Assembly: GCA_001804805.1 (NCBI GenBank)
Contig: MHBH01000073.1
Location: forward strand, 94,539-158,538
DNA: 64,000 bases
Source: Lentisphaerae bacterium GWF2_49_21
GTDB taxonomy: Bacteria; Verrucomicrobiota; Lentisphaeria; Victivallales; GWF2-50-93
Direction: 5' to 3'
Below the pieces are notes generated by a model that was not told the origin of the DNA, searched no databases, and saw nothing but the letters and a program-made list of their open reading frames with translations. The translations under genes were made by a program, and so were the position numbers. Positions 38,127 through 61,730 of this stretch are shown piece after piece. Positions within the stretch are counted from its first letter, which is position 1. Each line of letters opens with the position of its first letter.

Positions 38127-38435
38127 GTCGATAAACCATTCTTAGAAAGTCAGAAAATAAATCAAATCAACTTAGTTGCCCCGGCAGGAATTTCAAGAAA
38201 GCTGGCATAAATCCGGAAACGCAATGAAGAATCTCCTGACGGCCATCCTGTCCCATCCGCATCCGGCTTTGCAAGACGACGCCGTGACAAGAGCAACTGG
38301 GTATTACGGATGTCATCCCTCGCTTCACGGCGGGCCGGAGATTCTTTATAACAAAAGAAAATCAAAGCCGTCCCAGGGGGAGGGGAATTAGCACCAACCA
38401 AGATTAAAAAGCGTCCCGGATTCATGTCACTTTGA

Positions 38436-41400
38436 TCATTTCACCGTGATGGTCGTGCTTTCCGAGTTCGCGTGATTGGCCTGGTTGTAATATTCATAGA
38501 TCTTTGCGGAAGGAGCTTTGACCTTCAAAGGATATTTAGCCTTCAGGAAATATGAGAAACGCAAGGGAGACTGCGGCTGAAGCTCGCGGAAATAGATGAT
38601 GATCTGGCTGCCAGTGATCTCATATTTTGCGATCATTCCCAGTTCCAGGAGCTTTTCAAAGGAATCTTTCTCTACGCTGAATCCGGCAGGAATACCGAGA
38701 TCGACAATCACCATCATGATCTGTTTATCCGTATTGTTGCATACGGAGACCTTCGCCTCGAGCGTGTCGTTGACCGCCAGATCGCGCCTGTCGAAATCCA
38801 CATTGATGGACATCTCCTGTTTCATGGCGGAAGGGGACTGTTTCAAATCATCCGGCATCCAGTAGGAACCTGCAATCTGATAGGCAAGATCTCCTTCCGG
38901 TTCCTGCTGCAGTTCCACCTGGTTTGCGCCCTGGCGAAGATATTTGCCCAGATCAAGGAGGCGCATAACATCATTGTTCTCCTTTGTTATATCCAGCTTT
39001 TTCACATCGAGTCCATTTACCTTTACGGTTACTGCCGCTGCATAATTGTTCCTTGCGCTTCCACTGCCGTCGAGCAGTGCCCGCAATGCCAGGATCGTCG
39101 CCTGTGTCGAATCCCATCCTCCTCCGGAACATTTCTGCGCCGAGATCCACCTGAGCGCGTCCGCGACCTTCGTTGGGAAACGTCCGTCCTTGATGAGCGC
39201 GAGGGTGGTCAGCGCCGTGGTTTCAACATCATACCCGCTTCCGCGGGAATATGTCATGCTGCGGCCTGATGAGTTCCAGCAGATGCCTTTTCCGGCCGGC
39301 ACTGCGGAATTCGCAAGTTCTTCAGCATAAATCCTGCCTGCAGGATCGTTCGCATTGCAGGCGAGAAGCGCATTCGCGATCAATGCCTTGCCATAATTGT
39401 TGGTCCTTCCTTTTTCAGCCCTGAGATATTCAAGCGCCTTTTCGAGCTGGGATGATCTTTCTCCGGATTCCGCCAGCGCCCAGGCGATATATGCGGTGAT
39501 GGATTGGATATTCCCCCAGGTATATGCAGGTCTTTCCTCATTCCATGAGCCGTCGCTCTTCTGTTTGCTGTACAACCAGTCCTTTGTACGTTTGATGATC
39601 AAAGGATCAACGTAACGGACCTGCGCCATGTCGTTGAACTCCAGGATCGCATACGCCGAAAGGCTGATGTTTGCGGGGGCGTGCCCATACCAGTCGAATC
39701 CGCCGCCGCTGACTTCGAAGGTGAGCAGACGCTGATAGCCGGTGTCTATGAATTTCCTGGCCTTCATCTCGGTCTCAGGAGAGATCCGCTTGCTTTCCTT
39801 CATGTAGCGGAGGGCGAGTACGTTCGGGTATGTGACCGATGAAGTCTGTTCAAAACAGCCGTATGGCATCCTAAATATTGAATTCATCCCCTCGACAACT
39901 TCGCTGAAACGGCTCGGATAGAGCTTCAGGACAAGTCCCTCGGATCCCTGGATTATGTTTTCGGGGATCTGCAGGCTGAATGAGGAATTGCCGCGCAGCA
40001 CGTCGTTGCTTGCCTCCTCGATCCTGCGCCCTGTTGGAAGTATCCTGATCTCCCTTTCTATTGCGTCGGACTCCTTCTGCCCGATGGCGCGTAGAAGAAG
40101 TTTCCTATTGCCGATCTTCATGACCTTTATCGGAAATCCGACCGCCTTGACTTCGTTGGGCTGGAGGACGACTGTCCGAGTGAGTCCGGCATCATCTGCG
40201 GCTTCAAACCAGTCCGCGGCTTCCAGCTCAAGACGGATTGTCTGCGGGGAGTCCAGATAGTTGTAGCAAACGACAGGTGTAGATATGCGATCGCCGAGAG
40301 CAAGGCTGACCGGCAGATCAAGATCCGCGAAGAAGTCCTGGAAGACTTTTATGGGAATTCCGGCTCCTCCGAGTTTTCCATCGGATCCTATCGCATCGAA
40401 ATCCACACGCCAGGTCGTTATTGAATCTGCGAGAGGCATTTCTATTTCAGCCCTTCCCCTGGCATCCGTGATGATCTCCGGATTCCAGAAAAGCGTTTCG
40501 GGGAACCAACTCCTCACCCTTGCCGGAGCTCCGGAGGAACCTGTCTTGTCCGACGGGAACTTCATGCCTTCCTGTTCGGCCATGTTCATTGCGAGTCCGA
40601 TCTGCTTGAGATCGCTGGACAGGCTTATCCTCCTCGACTTTTCCCTGGCCTGGCTCAACGCAGGAAGCATCATCCCGGCAAGTATTGCCAATACTGCTAT
40701 GACGACGAGCACTTGCAGCAATAAACTGACTCCGCTCGTTTCCTCTTTTGCCGGAAATCCAAGCATTGTGGACAGTTCAGACTTGCCTTTGTCTATGAAG
40801 GACATGACGATTAACGGTGCGACAAAAGAGCCTATTAACAGGAAAAAGCTGAAATAAAAGTTGTTTGCCGGAAGGATTTCAAGGACTATCAGTACCAGGA
40901 GGATCTGGAAGACGGCGAACTGGATGATATATGCGATTGCGCAGGTTATGAGTTCATTGCGGCAGTCCATGAACCTTGCTTCGATTTTCAAGGCGGAGAC
41001 AATGTTGATGATTGGAATCGACAAAGCTGCCAGGACAAAAGCATTGAAGGCTGAAATTACGACTATGATCAATTTGCCGTCAAGATTTATCTGGGACAGG
41101 GCAATCCCAAGGAACGGGTAGGAAAGCATGCACAGGATAAATTGGATTGTAAGATTCCATTTGAGCTTTTCATAGAGATCAATCAGAAGCCTTGCCTCCT
41201 CTGAAATTATCCTGCCATGACTTGGTCCTATTGCCTTTCTTTTCATCTTTTTAGAATTGTAGATTGCAATACCTACAAATACCAGGAACGGAGAAACGGC
41301 CAGGCATACACCGAGGATATTCATGAGAGCGTCCTTGCGTTTCTTCTCGAGAACCTCCTTTATCGGAGCGGTATTGATCTTGTATTTGCTGTTTTTCCCC

Positions 41401-43502
41401 TCGAGGATCTCCAGCATCCTGAGCTGGTCCGGATCCGATATGAAAGTTCTTGGATCTGCGGTCAAGCTGTTTTTCAAATCCTTGCTTCTTTTTATGAAAT
41501 CTTCTGAGATATATCCCTGCTCGACCAGCTTCTCGAGAGTTCCATTTATATTGTTGTTCTGGCTGGAGGCAGCCATAAGCAGGCAGGTGCTTGCCATGTC
41601 CTGGTCTGCTTTTGGATTTGAAAGCAGTTTCAGAGGAGATGCGAAAATCTTTATCTGGTATCTCGGTTCAAGGAGGCTTTTGTTGAGCTCGAAGATCTGT
41701 TTCAGGAAACCCGGCTCCCCGTCCTCCACATGGAATACGCTTTCATCAACTGCGGCAGCGCCCAGCGCAGCCTGGACGGCCTTTCCGTCCGGATCAGTGA
41801 CCTCCACCTGGATCTTCGCAGTTCCTCCGGGCGTATAGATCTTGCTGTCCGGTACTGCGCTGATGCGAAGTCCGGATGCAGCGTTCACATAGAGCATGCG
41901 GCTCAGTCCGCGGTCTTCGCCTTTTAAACCAATGACATATGCGTCGACCTGGAGCAGTCCGCTGAAGTCGGCGGATACAGGGATTAACTGTTCCCCGCGG
42001 CCGTTCCTGATCTCGACCGAACGTGTCAGCAGAGTCTGCCCGTTCTTTACAACGTCGATGAATACCTCCCTCACCGTCGGTTCCGCGAGTATGGACAGCC
42101 TGGCAGTCTCCCCTACGCGGTATGATGCCTTGTCCGGACGGAATATGAACGATGGCGACATGAAGCCAGGCGCTGCAAGAGACAGTTTTCCCCGGAGCCC
42201 TTTTTTGTCGGAGGCGATGATCTCAAAGCCTGAATCTTCATTTTTTGGAGTCAGCTTTATTACAGCAAATCCGTTTTCACCGGTCTTGAATCTATTCCCA
42301 TTGATGCGAAGTTCGCAGTCGGCAGGCGAACCGTCAGGATAGGCTGTTGCGACATAGACCTGGTTTTCAAGTCCCTTGACAAGGGTTCCGCCTTCCGGAA
42401 ATGCGATGACTTCGATCTCGTTTTCACTGACTGTCAGGGACAGGGTCCTTTTTTCAGTATGTGAGGCGGTGTCCGTAACGGAGATCTCAAGTTCAAGGAA
42501 TGCATTTCCCTGTTTGACAGGCATTCCGGTGAAATTTCCGGGCAATTGAATCTGGAAGGAAAGGCGGCCGGAGGAATCGGTCATGCCCTTGGCTTTTCCT
42601 ATATCAACTGGTTTTTCCTGGAGAGTCCGTGCTATTGCTGCTACCTGCGCACCTCCTGCAGGCTTTCCGAAGAAATACACCGCTTCGATGTCGCAATTGA
42701 CCTTTTCACCCGGCCGGTAATAATTCTTGTCGGAACTGGCGGTAATTTTAAATTTTGGAAGGACATAGTGTTTGACCTCGACTGTTTTTTCCGACGTGGA
42801 ACCATTGCACTCGGCCTTCAGCTTGTAACGTCCAGTGTTGACAAGGGAGGCAAGCTCGAACTCCCCGGCGGTGATACCGAACTTTGAACTGTTTAATTCC
42901 TTCCTGTAGACCTTGTTCCCCTTCGGATCTGATATTTCAAACGTAATCTTTTCACCGGGCAGAGGCTTCAGATTCTGGCTGTTGCAGATCAACGACTTGA
43001 ACAGGATCACCTGTCCAGGTTGGTATATCGGCTTGTCGCTGCTCAGGAATATCCTGGCTGGAGCACCCATATGTACTTTGTTTGCAACTCTGTCATATCC
43101 GAGCCAGGAGCTTGTTTCGACGACAAGTTCATAATCTCCGGGCTTGATGGCCGGGATCCGGATTCTTCCATCGACGGATCCCCTGGCATCAGTTTTGAAT
43201 TTCCCCAGTTCCGTCTCATCATTTTTCCTTGTCAGCGAAATCCGCACTTCTGCGTTTTCAAGCGCATTGCCAGTTTTCCTGTCCCTTACAACAATCCTGA
43301 CAGCCGAATCAGAATCGGGGGACATTTCTGTATCGAGGTAGACTATCGTCTGCTGCATGTCCTGGCATATGAACGTCCTGTAGGCACACCAGAGACAGAG
43401 AAGGACAAGGATGACAGCAAATGACAGTTTCCATTTAAATCCGACCTTTTTTATGTCTGTTTTTCCGGCAGATTCCGCCTCAATATTGGTACCTTTTTCC
43501 AT
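38436..43502 (-). CDS. Giant (1688 aa) alpha-2-macroglobulin-like protein with an internal polytopic membrane block and an embedded pilin-like helix
   Basis: N-terminal TM anchor. About 700 aa of beta-rich MG-like domains. At about aa 720-960 there are at least 5 hydrophobic helices. The segment SLLLQVLVVIAVLAILAGMMLPALSQAREKSRRISLSSDLKQIGLA is homologous to the N-terminus of the DUF1559 proteins in this window. The C-terminus holds a thioester-type motif, GCFEQTSS, in an alpha/alpha-toroid-like TED region. Confidence 0.7.
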   Translation of the reverse strand: MEKGTNIEAESAGKTDIKKVGFKWKLSFAVILVLLCLWCAYRTFICQDMQQTIVYLDTEMSPDSDSAVRIVVRDRKTGNALENAEVRISLTRKNDETELGKFKTDARGSVDGRIRIPAIKPGDYELVVETSSWLGYDRVANKVHMGAPARIFLSSDKPIYQPGQVILFKSLICNSQNLKPLPGEKITFEISDPKGNKVYRKELNSSKFGITAGEFELASLVNTGRYKLKAECNGSTSEKTVEVKHYVLPKFKITASSDKNYYRPGEKVNCDIEAVYFFGKPAGGAQVAAIARTLQEKPVDIGKAKGMTDSSGRLSFQIQLPGNFTGMPVKQGNAFLELEISVTDTASHTEKRTLSLTVSENEIEVIAFPEGGTLVKGLENQVYVATAYPDGSPADCELRINGNRFKTGENGFAVIKLTPKNEDSGFEIIASDKKGLRGKLSLAAPGFMSPSFIFRPDKASYRVGETARLSILAEPTVREVFIDVVKNGQTLLTRSVEIRNGRGEQLIPVSADFSGLLQVDAYVIGLKGEDRGLSRMLYVNAASGLRISAVPDSKIYTPGGTAKIQVEVTDPDGKAVQAALGAAAVDESVFHVEDGEPGFLKQIFELNKSLLEPRYQIKIFASPLKLLSNPKADQDMASTCLLMAASSQNNNINGTLEKLVEQGYISEDFIKRSKDLKNSLTADPRTFISDPDQLRMLEILEGKNSKYKINTAPIKEVLEKKRKDALMNILGVCLAVSPFLVFVGIAIYNSKKMKRKAIGPSHGRIISEEARLLIDLYEKLKWNLTIQFILCMLSYPFLGIALSQINLDGKLIIVVISAFNAFVLAALSIPIINIVSALKIEARFMDCRNELITCAIAYIIQFAVFQILLVLIVLEILPANNFYFSFFLLIGSFVAPLIVMSFIDKGKSELSTMLGFPAKEETSGVSLLLQVLVVIAVLAILAGMMLPALSQAREKSRRISLSSDLKQIGLAMNMAEQEGMKFPSDKTGSSGAPARVRSWFPETLFWNPEIITDARGRAEIEMPLADSITTWRVDFDAIGSDGKLGGAGIPIKVFQDFFADLDLPVSLALGDRISTPVVCYNYLDSPQTIRLELEAADWFEAADDAGLTRTVVLQPNEVKAVGFPIKVMKIGNRKLLLRAIGQKESDAIEREIRILPTGRRIEEASNDVLRGNSSFSLQIPENIIQGSEGLVLKLYPSRFSEVVEGMNSIFRMPYGCFEQTSSVTYPNVLALRYMKESKRISPETEMKARKFIDTGYQRLLTFEVSGGGFDWYGHAPANISLSAYAILEFNDMAQVRYVDPLIIKRTKDWLYSKQKSDGSWNEERPAYTWGNIQSITAYIAWALAESGERSSQLEKALEYLRAEKGRTNNYGKALIANALLACNANDPAGRIYAEELANSAVPAGKGICWNSSGRSMTYSRGSGYDVETTALTTLALIKDGRFPTKVADALRWISAQKCSGGGWDSTQATILALRALLDGSGSARNNYAAAVTVKVNGLDVKKLDITKENNDVMRLLDLGKYLRQGANQVELQQEPEGDLAYQIAGSYWMPDDLKQSPSAMKQEMSINVDFDRRDLAVNDTLEAKVSVCNNTDKQIMMVIVDLGIPAGFSVEKDSFEKLLELGMIAKYEITGSQIIIYFRELQPQSPLRFSYFLKAKYPLKVKAPSAKIYEYYNQANHANSESTTITVK

Positions 43503-43746
43503 TTTGACACCCCTCTTTTAGATAAATTATCAAATACTATCATATACTATTATACAATATCATATATCCATTTCAAGTATCATTCGCTAATTTTATTCAA
43601 AATCTTCTTGTTTGGGGTACTTTAGCCTCAAATAACTGAGCTGTTCAACATTAAATACCCCGGTAAGTCTTGAGATTGTCTTGATAATTGATTCCTTGTG
43701 GATTCTCTTAAAAAACGCTCAAAATTTAAAGACGATGACGAATCAT

Positions 43747-46322: not shown

Positions 46323-47450
46323 ATGCCTATGAAGAAAAGCATATATGACATCGCGAAGATGGCTGGCGTTTCCACCGCGACAGTGTCCCGCGTAATGAAC
46401 AACACCGACCAGATCAGCGAAGCCACCAGGACCTCAGTCCTGAAGGCCATCAGGGACGCGAACTATGTGCCCCGCGGAAGCGGCAATGCAAGAACAAGAA
46501 GGAAATCCCCTGACTCCTTTGGAAATTCAGGTGGCACCTTTGAACTGCTTTTCTGCTTCAGCCACGGAGGAGAACGCCTGCATGTCGACGAAAGTAAAAT
46601 CGAAGTGCAGGAATTCAAACACATACCCCCGGAGGAGTTCGTGTCAGGAAGCTCCTTCTACAGGCCGATCAGCGACGGTGCTATCGACGAGGCGAGGAAA
46701 TTCGGATTCAAGACCATAATGCACTGCATCCGGAAGGACGCTCTGAACAGCGCGGAACTCATCCAGTCGCTCTACGACGACAAAATATCAGGTCTTCTTC
46801 TTGCAGGAGAACAGCCTGACGGACTTGCAGAATTCCTGAAGAACTTCAAGCTGCCTGTCATTCTCGTGGACATGATGGCCGGCAACGGCGCCGTGGAAGT
46901 CACCACCGACAATCTGGAAGGCATATCGCAGGCTTTTGAGCATGTCTATTCCCTCGGACACAGGAAGATAGGGTTCATGATTGGAGACGACAGTGTTCCG
47001 GCCTACCGGGAGAGACATCTTTCATTCGTATATAAGATGGCGGAAAAGGGGCTGAAGGTGAAGGAGGAATGGGTATACAGGGGAACGAACCACATAACTG
47101 ATGCAGCCGAATGGGGCATGAAGTTCTTCAAGCGCCGGGATCTGCCCACCGCCTTTCTCTGTACGAACGACTATTGTGCGCTGGGATTGCTCCGGGCGGC
47201 GTTCAAGAATGGAGTCAGGATTCCTGAAGATCTGAGCATTGTCGGATTCGACGACATGGAGACTTCAAGCCTGGTTACCCCTACGCTTACGACTGTGAAT
47301 GTGGCGAAGTCGGAGATTGGACGCTTTTCCGCAAGGGAACTTATCGTCTCATTGAAAAACGGGAGAAGGCCTTCAAATGCCCCGCAATGCCGTGTTCATC
47401 TTAAACCCAGTCTTGTGAAACGTGAATCCACTGCAGCGGTGAAGAAGTAG
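46323..47450 (+). CDS. LacI-family transcriptional regulator
   Basis: N-terminal [24 protein letters not shown], then a periplasmic-binding-protein-like sugar-binding core. Candidate operators lie upstream. Confidence 0.8.
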
Positions 47451-47458
47451 AGGGCTAC

Positions 47459-48289
47459 ATGGAAAATTTGAAATTTAAAATCGGAAATCGGCAATCCCAC
47501 TTCGCCCGAGGAGCTTCGAGGGACAGGTCGGCAATTGGCAATGCATTCACCCTTATCGAGCTCCTGGTCGTCATTGCGATCATCGCAATTCTCTGTGCGC
47601 TGCTTCTTCCCGCCCTCGGCCGCGCGAAACTGGTCGCACGAAGCATTGCGTGCTTGAGCAACATCAAACAGCTTGGAGTCTGGGGTCTCTCATATGGTGC
47701 CGACTATGATGGATATCTTCCATATAACGGACAGAAATGGCCATGCTCCTTTGAAGGATACGATGATGGCAGTTCCGGCTGGAGCGATACATCCAAATGC
47801 TCCCTGACGATTTCAGGCAAGACCGACGACACTGTCATGCACTGCCCCCAGACCAGCACGGCAATCGGGAAAACTTTGACCGGCGGCAAAGGCTGCCATT
47901 ATAGTCTGAATGCAAGGCTCGGAGCCGTGGGTTCACCAAACGCGGTGACACACTGGCCATATCCGCACATATCAAAACTGACCGAGAAGAAATTCTGGTT
48001 CGCCGATGGAGCCCTGCGTTACCGCCCAAGTGCAAGTCCGAAGGAGATCGCAATACAGTCGGCTATGATGTTCGACTACTGGGACAGCAACCCCCTCTGG
48101 GACGGCATGAAGCTGCCGTGGATGTGGTACAACGAATACTATAAAGTGACCGGGGCCGGAGGCCCTGTCCCGTTTGTTACACATCCTGGAGGTGCGAATT
48201 TTGTCTTTGGAGACGGACATGCGGAGGCGGTAAGATATTTATCCTATTACAATATGTCGGCTGCTGAAAAAAATGCATTCTATAAGTAA
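47459..48289 (+). CDS. DUF1559 (H-X9-DG) protein with a type IV pilin-like N-terminal helix
   Basis: …[30 protein letters not shown]…, and a C-terminal [13 protein letters not shown] (H-X9-DG). Confidence 0.8.
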
Positions 48290-56483: not shown

Positions 56484-57212
56484 ATGAAAAACTCGAAACT
56501 TGCAATCCGAAGTTCGAAAGACGGGAGAGGGAAAAGAGGTTATTTTACGCTCATTGAGTTGCTCGTGGTCATCGCCATCATCGCGATTCTGGCGGCATTG
56601 TTGCTTCCGGCGCTGAACAATGCCAAGTTGACGGCAAAAAGCGTAGTGTGTCTGAGCAATCTCAAACAAAATGTTTTAGCTGCCTACTCATATGGTTCCG
56701 AAAATGACATGTATGTGCCAATTATAGGAAAGCTCGCAGGGGGATGGAGAGATTATTCGTATTTGTTGACGCAAGAAAAATATATGGATAATAGCAATGC
56801 CCGAGCTTGTCCTCGCGGCCAACCCTACAAAAGCTGTTATGGCTATGGAACACAAAGTGGAACAGCCAGTTCTGGCCCCAGATTTGAAGCCCCTTATCCG
56901 GCTTTCAACATATCATATGGGGGAGGAGACTATATGAAATTTCGAGCACTAAATCAAATATCTCAGCCAAATAATTATACATATATTTGTGATGTAAGCA
57001 ATTGGGAAGCCAAACAATACTTCGACGTTACACCAACAAACGCCTGGGCTTCTTTGGGGCTGCGTCATTTTCGGAAGGCCAACGCTGCTCTATGGGATGG
57101 TCACGCAGAAGGGCGCACAGGGAAAAACTGGTACAACTCTGGATTCACCTCAGGATTTATTGTCCTCAGCGAGGCCATTGCCTCCAGCAGTGCTGCTCCG
57201 GTTAATTTTTAA
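56484..57212 (+). CDS. DUF1559 (H-X9-DG) protein with a type IV pilin-like N-terminus
   Basis: …[31 protein letters not shown]…, and a C-terminal [13 protein letters not shown]. Confidence 0.8.
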
Positions 57213-61061: not shown

Positions 61062-61730
61062 TTGAAAATTGAAAATAAATTTACCCTTATCGAACTGCTG
61101 ATCGTGATTGCGATCATCGCAATTCTCATCGCCCTTCTGCTGCCTGCCCTTAAGAATGCAAAGCTGTCTGCAAAAAGCGTGGTGTGCCTGAGCAATCTCA
61201 GGCAGAATGCCGTAGCGGCCCTGGCGTATTCCGCGGACAATGATCTGCGGGTTCCGCTTTTCACAATCAGTGGCAGCCATGATTATTCAAGGTTCCTGAC
61301 TGATGGCAAGTACCTTGAAGCAACACCTGCCAGAGGCTGTCCCTGGGCTCCGCCGTATGGCACAAAATACGGACCGGGCAACATATCTACATCTCGCGGC
61401 TATGGTGTCTTTGCTTCAGGTGCCAGTACAGAGAGCTTTGGAACGACCACGGTGTATATCCTTTCATTGTCGAAATTAACAAATCCTGCCAACAAGGTAT
61501 ATATCATTGATTCAAGCACAGGGCAGGGGGCCCAGTATCCCGATCTTGCCTGGGGTTTTCCTTCCTGGGCTGTTGGATTTGTGGGGCTTCGCCATTTCCG
61601 CAAGGCCAATGCGGCGCTCTTTGATGGACGTGCCGAGGGACGCGAAGGAAAAGCCTGGGGGCTTACTGGCGCCTATCTTGTCCTGAAAGATACGATTAGT
61701 TCAAACAGCGCGGTTCAGTTGAATTTCTAA
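61062..61730 (+). CDS. DUF1559 (H-X9-DG) protein with a type IV pilin-like N-terminus; TTG start
   Basis: (TTG) [34 protein letters not shown]…, and a C-terminal [13 protein letters not shown]. Confidence 0.75.

Follow-up and report, generated by a model that had tools for sequence, protein, structure and literature searches.

Two types of bacterial alpha-2-macroglobulin (A2M) are recognised, Type I proteins having a thioester, a lipoprotein anchor and a linkage to PBP1C, and Type II proteins (MagD/YfaS) having no thioester, a six-gene mag operon and a separate membrane protein, MagB (PMC5764988). The subject of this report is a gene whose product departs from both. It lies at 38436-43502 on the minus strand of a 64,000-nucleotide stretch of DNA from Lentisphaerae bacterium GWF2_49_21 (GenBank assembly GCA_001804805.1, contig MHBH01000073.1, positions 94,539 to 158,538), the whole of which is referred to here as the window, and it encodes an A2M-like thioester protein of 1688 residues in which a predicted membrane-spanning block, ending in a helix of pseudopilin type, occupies the place of the bait region.

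Like the Type I proteins (Escherichia coli ECAM/YfhM and Salmonella Sa-A2M), the window protein has a CxEQ motif, a predicted location at the periplasmic face of the inner membrane and a presumed role in protease trapping (PMC4498604, PMC5764988). YfhM, however, is held by an N-terminal lipid anchor and has an ordinary soluble bait, whereas the window protein has seven predicted transmembrane (TM) helices, six of them in the bait site. No lipobox is found at its N-terminus, where 27 residues of charged tail precede a hydrophobic helix; the pbpC linkage is absent beside the window gene and the relatives examined; and bMG3, bMG5 and bMG10, representing the bMG-type domains that YfhM uses, stay below Pfam cut-offs. 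The macroglobulin fold and the association with the inner membrane are held in common with the Type II proteins (Pseudomonas aeruginosa MagD, E. coli YfaS), but the window protein differs from these in that CxEQ is present, a mag-like operon is lacking and the membrane helices are built in. The defining features of both bacterial types fail in the window protein.

A closer resemblance is found to the metazoan thioester proteins (A2M, A2ML1, CD109, insect TEP1 and C3/C4), which have the same Pfam domains in the same order, namely MG2, MG3, A2M_BRD, A2M, TED_complement with CxEQ, and A2M_recep, and share with the window protein the FPETxxW return strand that follows the bait/anaphylatoxin (ANA) site. 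CD109 is membrane-tethered, as is the window protein, but by a C-terminal glycosylphosphatidylinositol anchor, and the other metazoan members are soluble. None has TM helices in the bait/ANA site or a pilin-derived element, both of which the window protein has, and, unlike all of them, the window protein is bacterial and predicted to sit in the inner membrane by an N-terminal signal-anchor. The gene and the parts of its predicted product, all on the minus strand, are as follows (aa, residues; pLDDT, predicted local distance difference test score).

38436..43502, minus strand: membrane-integrated (predicted) thioester A2M-like protein, a complete 1688-aa open reading frame (ORF) from ATG to TAA
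43362..43448, minus strand: hydrophobic helix near the N-terminus (aa 19-47), preceded by a cytoplasmic tail rich in Lys (Kyte-Doolittle 2.21; AlphaFold2 helix 18-45; 52 homologues)
41730..43355, minus strand: half comprising MG1-MG6 and the bait-region domain (aa 50-591), predicted periplasmic (Pfam; beta-sandwich domains with pLDDT of about 85-95; Foldseek)
41370..41729, minus strand: conserved helical linker (aa 592-711) with the motif ..PG(F/L)L.Q....E..LL.PRYQIK.F.. (conservation, AlphaFold2)
40764..41369, minus strand: predicted TM helices 1-5 of the insert (aa 712-913), weakly conserved
40572..40745, minus strand: pilin-like alpha-1 helix (aa 920-977, including SGVSLLLQVLVVIAVLAILAGMMLPALSQAREKSRRISLSSDLKQIGLAMNMAE), TM helix 6 with its periplasmic extension (profile evidence; AlphaFold2; Gly(-1) and Glu5 lost)
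40509..40571, minus strand: disordered tether (aa 978-998, QEGMKFPSDKTGSSGAPARVR) from the pilin helix to the FPETLFW return strand (pLDDT 28-42; unconserved columns), the proposed bait
40224..40508, minus strand: A2M domain, comprising the MG6 return strand and MG7 (aa 999-1093) and beginning with the invariant motif R..FPETL.W.P (Pfam, alignments)
39075..39908, minus strand: thioester domain, TED (aa 1199-1476; Pfam E = 4e-46)
39846..39860, minus strand: thioester motif G-C-F-E-Q (aa 1215-1219; Cys1216 codon TGT at 39855-39857), from the sequence and its homologues
38466..38717, minus strand: C-terminal receptor-binding (RBD) or MG8-type domain (aa 1596-1679; Pfam E = 2.4e-14)

The 1688 codons run in a single frame without interruption, and an identical protein, present on three contigs, has been deposited as hypothetical protein A2X48_04770 of Lentisphaerae bacterium GWF2_49_21. 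The initial annotation had claimed macroglobulin domains and a thioester-type CFEQ domain for it, and profile annotation with Pfam bears this out. CarboxypepD_reg/MG1 (aa 68-138) and MG3 (aa 245-319) were found together with five matches above the gathering threshold: MG2 (aa 150-243, E 4.4e-28, 97.9 bits), A2M_BRD (aa 455-591, 41.2 bits), A2M (aa 1003-1093, E 6e-18, 64.9 bits), TED_complement (aa 1199-1476, 157.9 bits), which includes GCFEQ, and A2M_recep (aa 1596-1679, 54.2 bits). Residues 592-1002 have no Pfam match above threshold, and no family-level NCBIfam model spans the protein. For a model of aa 1-1200 the best folds in Foldseek were those of CD109, C3, C4, C5, A2ML1 and A2M (1e-30 to 1e-36), and sequence searches of the PDB returned metazoan A2M, CD109, A2ML1, TEP1 and C3 at E values of 1e-60 to 1e-40. 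The match to YfhM of E. coli and Salmonella is confined to the TED region at E ~1e-14, as against 1e-60 for human A2M. The window protein is thus an unambiguous member of the A2M/complement thioester-protein superfamily, with a full MG1-6/MG7/CUB/TED/RBD body. CxEQ is kept in all 120 of the best homologues, inside the nearly invariant stretch PYGCFEQTSSTTYPN, and the motif is intact in the window protein, where a thioester bond may be supposed.

Relative to canonical A2Ms, the protein contains an insert of about 410 residues (aa 592-1002). Alignment of the C-terminal half to solved structures picks up from window residue ~995 at human A2M residue ~730 and at residue 16 of the C3b alpha' chain, and window residues 989-1006 (SSGAPARVRSWFPETLFW) align with SLGSSPHVRKHFPETWIW of CD109, the segment that follows the CD109 bait. 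The structure alignments to A2M, C3b and CD109 therefore place the insert where A2M and CD109 have their bait region and C3 its anaphylatoxin site. In this superfamily, cleavage of the bait is what fires the conformational trap. Placement at the bait position, which the initial annotation had missed, is the key to interpreting the insert.

The first ~120 residues of the insert form a helical linker that is also present in soluble relatives and takes the position of the C3 LNK region. Beyond it, hydropathy analysis identified six 19-residue windows with Kyte-Doolittle means of 1.9-2.8 (aa 724-952), in addition to the N-terminal one at 19-47. AlphaFold2 models built with family alignments for aa 580-1010 (pLDDT 78) and aa 1-1200 (pLDDT 79) both place helices at 712-757, 768-803, 809-837, 842-873, 882-913 and 920-977, with pLDDT values mostly of 80-96. 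The last is one continuous helix of ~58 residues, beyond which residues 979-998 drop to a pLDDT of 28-42. It had been proposed that about 240 residues with at least five hydrophobic helices separate the two macroglobulin halves; the helices stand, six being found, but the length does not, as the full insert is about 410 residues and the linker makes up ~120 of them. The possibility, raised at the same time, that the block is a buried beta region is excluded by the six long helices in AlphaFold2. The bait site is thus a mostly helical, predicted membrane-embedded insert in which only aa 978-998 are disordered and variable; across the family this tether is poorly conserved, with a median length of 20 residues (range 16-78).

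Conservation of TM helices 1-5 is weak and chiefly a matter of hydrophobicity. An exhaustive profile search found no relatives of these helices outside the A2M family, the short top matches being fragments or internally deleted copies from the same family. One metagenomic protein of 350 residues (P0130) consists of the N-terminal anchor, the membrane block with its pilin-like helix and the last ~40 C-terminal residues, the macroglobulin body being missing; an internal deletion, a pseudogene or misassembly would account for it.

The models are consistent with seven passes through the membrane, made by the N-terminal helix and the six helices of the insert. Across 52 homologues with six helices, the sequence before the N-terminal helix is rich in Lys and Arg and that after it is acidic, and the helix is probably an uncleaved signal-anchor. 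In the same 52 homologues, the predicted cytoplasmic segments average 3.0-4.1 Lys and Arg residues each, as against 0.65-1.0 in two short acidic periplasmic loops. Because the number of helices in the insert is even, both macroglobulin halves fall on one side of the membrane, an arrangement that the fold itself requires, since strands flanking the insert on both sides complete MG6. The two halves can consequently come together as a single macroglobulin body on the outer side of the cytoplasmic membrane. The topology first suggested for the protein, with an N-terminal anchor, an external domain, a membrane re-entry and a second external domain, fits the even helix count and the positive-inside rule. 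A pilin alpha-1 helix inserts N-in/C-out by nature, and this is the orientation needed for re-export of the C-terminal ~700 residues.

Throughout the family, the last helix of the block conforms to the alpha-1 pattern of type IV pilins, ..LVVIAVLAILAGMMLPAL..A(R/K)..(A/S)....L..LKQ(I/L)GLA. The window protein itself matches TIGR01710 (GspG) at 2.4e-6 over profile positions 5-67, below the curated cut-off, and DUF1559 (PF07596) at 2.2e-4 over positions 2-52 of 268 (21.8 bits against a cut-off of 23.3); a full-length DUF1559 domain is absent after the helix, and the chain continues straight into the A2M domain. When compared with a prepilin-type protein encoded in the window at 56484-57212, the pilin-like segment is 46% identical over 48 ungapped residues, a match that is not significant in BLASTP after composition correction (E = 54). 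Because the pairwise comparison is not significant on its own, the case for homology with prepilins is built on profiles. An exhaustive search of cluster representatives with a block profile of 261 positions, covering TM helices 1-5 and the pilin helix, matched 228,117 representatives at E<=1e-3, of which 44,742 also passed E<=1e-10. After ~25 family members, the matches listed cover only positions ~200-261 and fall on the N-termini of short proteins (E ~1e-17). In addition, two relatives (P0008 and P0027) score above the cut-off for Pfam N_methyl, and canonical processing sites can be read in P0008 (G/FTLIE, the slash marking the site) and in P0027 and P0059 (G/FTVIE, within GFTVIELLVV). The sixth helix is on this sequence evidence a genuine derivative of a GspG/DUF1559-type pseudopilin, in agreement with the initial annotation, which had likened it to the pilin-like N-termini of the DUF1559 proteins.

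The resemblance to GspG and DUF1559 pilins ends with the alpha-1 pattern, as the window helix is internal (beginning near residue 925 of 1688) and no pilin globular head is present in its subgroup. Gly(-1) is the residue that prepilin peptidases require in PilD and GspO substrates. When the helices of 75 alignable relatives were aligned on LLPAL, Gly(-1) was kept in seven, the commonest residue at this position being Arg, and Glu or Asp at +5 was kept in 44. The window protein has Val at -1, a Gly at -2 that is one residue out of register, and Gln930 at +5; in P0002, the relative nearest to it, positions -1 and +5 are Val and Thr. Since Gly(-1) is lost, cleavage by a prepilin peptidase is unlikely in the window protein, and on all three counts (Gly(-1), Glu5 and N-terminal position) it does not belong to the prepilin class. 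A functional fusion with the pseudopilin system, which had also been suggested, finds no support in these residues, in the location of the helix 925 residues into the chain or in the adjacent genes, which include no pilus or type II secretion system (T2SS) genes. Most likely, the helix is a domesticated pilin alpha-1 helix that acts as an uncleaved signal-anchor packed in the bundle, and cleavage, methylation and polymerisation are all improbable. Three genes on the plus strand of the window, at 47459-48289, 56484-57212 and 61062-61730, encode prepilin-type proteins whose N-termini have the canonical form ..(F)TLIELL(V/I).., and show that the host has active prepilin-type proteins with which the degenerate internal helix can be compared. 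The first of them also has a weak DUF1559 match, and follows a gene for a LacI-family regulator (46323-47450).

A further clue to the packing of this helix comes from a buried Arg in TM helix 4 (consensus AFLxQFxxSR). An acidic residue at +5 is found in 36 of the 52 members with this Arg and in one of the 16 members without it (Fisher p = 8e-6), such that 36 of the 37 members with an acidic +5 have the Arg. In the two Lentisphaerae proteins both positions are uncharged, the window protein having Gln866 in TM helix 4 (40905-40907) and Gln930 at pilin +5 (40713-40715). This pattern suggests an intramembrane ion pair that would dock the pilin helix in the bundle and that is lost or replaced in concert.

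The architecture is not restricted to the window. A search of 5.8 billion proteins returned more than 100 full-length relatives (34-59% identity, 1490-1850 residues) from independent metagenomes and genomes, and homologues with the insert occur on independent contigs of Verrucomicrobiota, Planctomycetota, Lentisphaerota and Chloroflexota. A scan of one genome per species placed the clade in Planctomycetota, Verrucomicrobiota, Acidobacteriota, Chloroflexota and Armatimonadota, and cultured hosts include Singulisphaera sp. Ch08 and Pedosphaera parvula (P0055). Counting hydrophobic segments from the BRD to the invariant R.R..FPETL.W motif divides the 120 best homologues into 73 with a polytopic insert (four to six segments detected, mostly six), 18 with a two-helix hairpin and 29 without any membrane helix. 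The latter have a cleavable signal peptide and, at the insert site, a pseudopilin globular domain. For instance, the soluble P0079 matches Pfam T2SSG at 38.3 bits (cut-off 21) at this site, with a 'DPWGNPY' motif followed by an Ala/Gly/Pro-rich linker. Automated JGI names for relatives include 'YfaS family' (several) and 'pseudopilin PulG / transthyretin-like protein', showing that annotation pipelines see pieces of these proteins and not the whole. Literature searches for a macroglobulin with a pseudopilin or prepilin returned nothing relevant, and no description of the architecture was found, as had been supposed when it was called undescribed among A2Ms.

In other lineages the last part of the insert is built differently. 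In Anaerolineae relatives the six helices lack the pilin signature and lead into a long Ala/Pro/Gly/Thr linker. In two Caldilineae hairpins (L025, aa ~690-725, and L040, aa ~660-710), the second helix resembles an internal lipoprotein signal, with an Arg-rich n-region and a hydrophobic core, and ends in the lipobox-like sequences FFWSAC/SAPAAP and LLWTAC/AAPASAP, respectively (the slash marking the apparent site), ahead of an Ala/Pro-rich linker. Judged by sequence, different lineages seem to place different types of export signal at the same insert site.

By analogy with characterised macroglobulins, the window protein can be read, with moderate confidence, as an inner-membrane-integrated thioester protease trap with a pilin-derived sixth helix and the tether as bait. 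The sixth helix would be kept as an N-in/C-out signal-anchor that re-exports the C-terminal half of ~700 residues and packs into the bundle, and the stretch 978-998, perhaps with parts of 592-711, would be the protease-accessible bait. The tether is proposed for this role because it is the sole disordered, unconserved and length-variable segment that faces the periplasm, and because it lies at the classical bait position. Cleavage there would free the equivalent of the alpha'-N-terminus from its membrane tether, and this release would trigger the usual macroglobulin rearrangement, exposing the thioester. The exposed thioester would then capture the attacking protease covalently at the membrane surface, with the complex remaining anchored via the N-terminal half. 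In function, such a tethered periplasmic trap would parallel YfhM/ECAM with its lipid anchor and CD109 with its glycosylphosphatidylinositol anchor, although here the anchor is of another kind and lies within the bait region.

Several points weigh against such a trap. The mechanism is carried over from characterised A2Ms, namely ECAM, Sa-A2M and eukaryotic proteins (PMC4498604, PMC5764988), and the proposed bait is short (~20 residues) and near the membrane. No neighbouring PBP1C or protease gene is present at the window locus to support a role in defence. The co-occurrence of Arg and Glu that would dock the sixth helix is confounded by phylogeny, and 12 members pair the Arg with Gly at +5. 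Moreover, planctomycete relatives are built as anti-sigma factors, which would imply sensing instead of, or besides, trapping.

It is this last point that lends substance to the alternative of a transmembrane sensor of proteases or envelope damage, in which cleavage or rearrangement of the body would be relayed through the bait-embedded bundle to a cytoplasmic partner, trapping being secondary. Eighteen of the 120 homologues (13 of the 18 hairpin members and five polytopic ones) have an N-terminal HxxxCxxC zinc anti-sigma domain before the first helix, recognised as Pfam zf-HC2 at 39.5 bits in P0056. A gene for an extracytoplasmic function (ECF) sigma factor lies directly upstream in all three such genes examined, with start and stop overlapping in P0056, and a sigma-like ORF is immediately upstream in nine of 15 planctomycete-type loci. 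Such relatives resemble the ZAS anti-sigma factors in having zf-HC2, one TM helix, a large periplasmic sensor and translational coupling to an ECF sigma gene. The membrane module, furthermore, sits in the part that moves on activation, and so would be a logical transducer. In the window protein, however, the first helix is preceded by only ~27 cytoplasmic residues, and neither the anti-sigma domain nor a sigma gene is found in it or its flanks; the anti-sigma domain occurs in no member of the Verrucomicrobia/Lentisphaerae subgroup. Its cytoplasmic loops are short and poorly conserved, and sequence conservation within the bundle is low. Sensing is accordingly less likely for the window member, although it is the most serious rival to the trap.

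Planctomycete loci that combine zf-HC2 with an adjacent upstream ECF sigma gene are L001:5468-11274 (with overlap), L003:5431-10782 and L005:1-5359, as well as L010, L011, L015-L018, L022, L023 and L057. In these planctomycetes, the gene arrangement suggests that a complete thioester macroglobulin serves an anti-sigma factor as its sensor domain, and no literature on a macroglobulin body in this role was found. A broader proposal, tentative but possible, is that the bait-site membrane module makes the macroglobulin a transmembrane receptor. The bundle would relay either an attack by proteases on the periplasmic body or the rearrangement that the thioester drives, and in planctomycetes the relay would free an ECF sigma factor from the fused zinc anti-sigma domain, the window protein being a domain-reduced member. 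If true, a complement-like 'molecular mousetrap' would serve as a bacterial signal-transduction sensor.

Less probable is that the protein is a covalent adhesin or surface tag, its thioester attaching to a target other than a protease (a glycan, peptidoglycan or a foreign cell) and its membrane block being a mere anchor, on the model of complement C3 or the thioester adhesins of Gram-positive bacteria. In its favour, YfhM is a far more distant sequence match (1e-14) than C3, CD109 and the TEP-type proteins are (1e-60), and the sulfatase and glycoside-hydrolase neighbours are typical of polysaccharide-degrading bacteria of the Planctomycetes-Verrucomicrobia-Chlamydiae group. In a diderm, however, external surfaces are out of reach for a seven-pass inner-membrane protein; relatives do not share the neighbouring genes; and the domain set, including BRD and RBD, is that of protease-trapping macroglobulins. 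An adhesin is thus improbable.

Very improbable, too, is a working class III signal, at which prepilin peptidase would cut before the helix and yield two chains like those of C3 beta and alpha, the C-terminal half perhaps passing to the T2SS or to type IV pilus machinery, which would treat it as an outsized modular pilin. Some relatives (P0008, P0027 and P0059) do retain a canonical site, 44 of 75 have Glu or Asp at +5, the three prepilin-type proteins encoded in the window require the host to possess a prepilin peptidase, and the lipoprotein-like internal signal at the equivalent Caldilineae helix suggests that processing signals recur there. Against these stand the absence of Gly(-1) from the window protein and 68 of the 75 relatives, the missing Glu5, a pre-helix stretch that is net acidic (AKEETSGV) and the lack of adjacent pilus or T2SS genes.

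That a frameshift or chimeric assembly joined macroglobulin, membrane-protein and DUF1559 genes is hardly credible, even though the source is a metagenome-assembled genome (MAG) and the many DUF1559 genes of the host could seed misassembly, for the identical protein stands on three contigs, the architecture recurs colinearly in more than 100 homologues (34-59% identity) that were sampled independently and span several phyla, complete ORFs were not seen divided into two genes at the insert, and the membrane block was not encountered in proteins other than A2Ms. The uninterrupted ORF and the shared architecture accord with the initial annotation of a single chimeric protein, as opposed to two or three genes joined by frameshift. 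The comparison of split and fused orthologues that it had called for found no two-gene orthologues split at the insert; broken ORFs are either scattered frameshifts in long-read MAGs (L021, L030, L041 and L069) or belong to a class with TGA at the thioester Cys codon.

This class, a large sister clade in Chloroflexota, was encountered in the genome scan at six independent loci, where a single in-frame TGA occupies the codon of the thioester Cys (...LRLP[HFY]G-TGA-FEQ[ST]TS.TYPNV...). Positions of the TGA in related Chloroflexota loci are L024:8651, L026:8723, L038:3970, L043:3617, L045:2212, L052:8741 and L089:5947-5949. Beyond the TGA, the frame stays open over ~480 conserved residues until the usual C-terminal end, and the six-helix insert is present in all six. 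A hairpin of 6-7 bp (GUACGUC-GG(U/C)-GACGUAC or a variant) follows ~10 nt past the UGA in all six, and at that position in none of ~80 loci with TGC or TGT. When the C-terminal fragment was used as a query, all 120 best matches were separately called 'genes' of 462-480 residues with 71-100% identity (at least 120 protein clusters). An independent 240-kb contig was verified directly, and the same protein is found on 10 contigs. The combination of TGA with a hairpin resembling a selenocysteine insertion sequence (SECIS) suggests a candidate bacterial selenoprotein. No literature linking selenoproteins with macroglobulins was found; if true, a selenoester would stand in place of the thioester, which would be chemically new.

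A divergent GNAT gene and a sulfatase gene flank the window gene, which is solitary and has a promoter-like site of its own; its neighbours in the window encode a sulfatase, a GFO/IDH oxidoreductase, a GH32 enzyme, a GNAT protein and a DUF188 protein. A conserved operon partner was sought for members without the anti-sigma domain, and none was found; models of anti-phage defence systems (PADLOC) returned noise only. An 87-residue ORF at 38162-38425 on the minus strand, 10 bp past the macroglobulin stop, is probably not a gene, having no family match, a low-complexity Arg/Pro-rich sequence and no conservation beside relatives. Upstream of the gene, a strongly AT-rich region with repeats had been described, and its GC content is indeed 30%, as against 50% for the gene, with the following two features.

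43549..43576, minus strand: sigma-70-type promoter match, TTGAAA-16 nt-TATAAT (11/12, ~47 nt 5' of the ATG; a consensus match only)
43539..43566, plus strand: two copies of ATCATATA at a spacing of 20 bp, either side of the predicted -10, the only copies in the 64-kb window

The ATCATATA pair may be an operator, and thus a candidate site for some regulator.

Taken as a family, these proteins appear to represent a third, widespread lineage of bacterial macroglobulins besides the lipid-anchored YfhM and the thioester-less MagD, and one that is by sequence nearer to the metazoan proteins. Within it the trigger, or bait, region takes three rebuilt forms: a membrane-spanning bundle, a hairpin and a soluble pseudopilin head. 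This raises the questions of how a macroglobulin folds and fires with its bait threaded through the membrane, of whether a pilin helix is reused here as an internal export signal, and of whether a thioester trap acts as the sensor of an ECF anti-sigma factor in bacteria. Such questions are relevant to the structural biology of macroglobulins and complement and to the field of ECF signalling, and the cultured hosts Pedosphaera parvula and Singulisphaera sp. Ch08 make them experimentally accessible.

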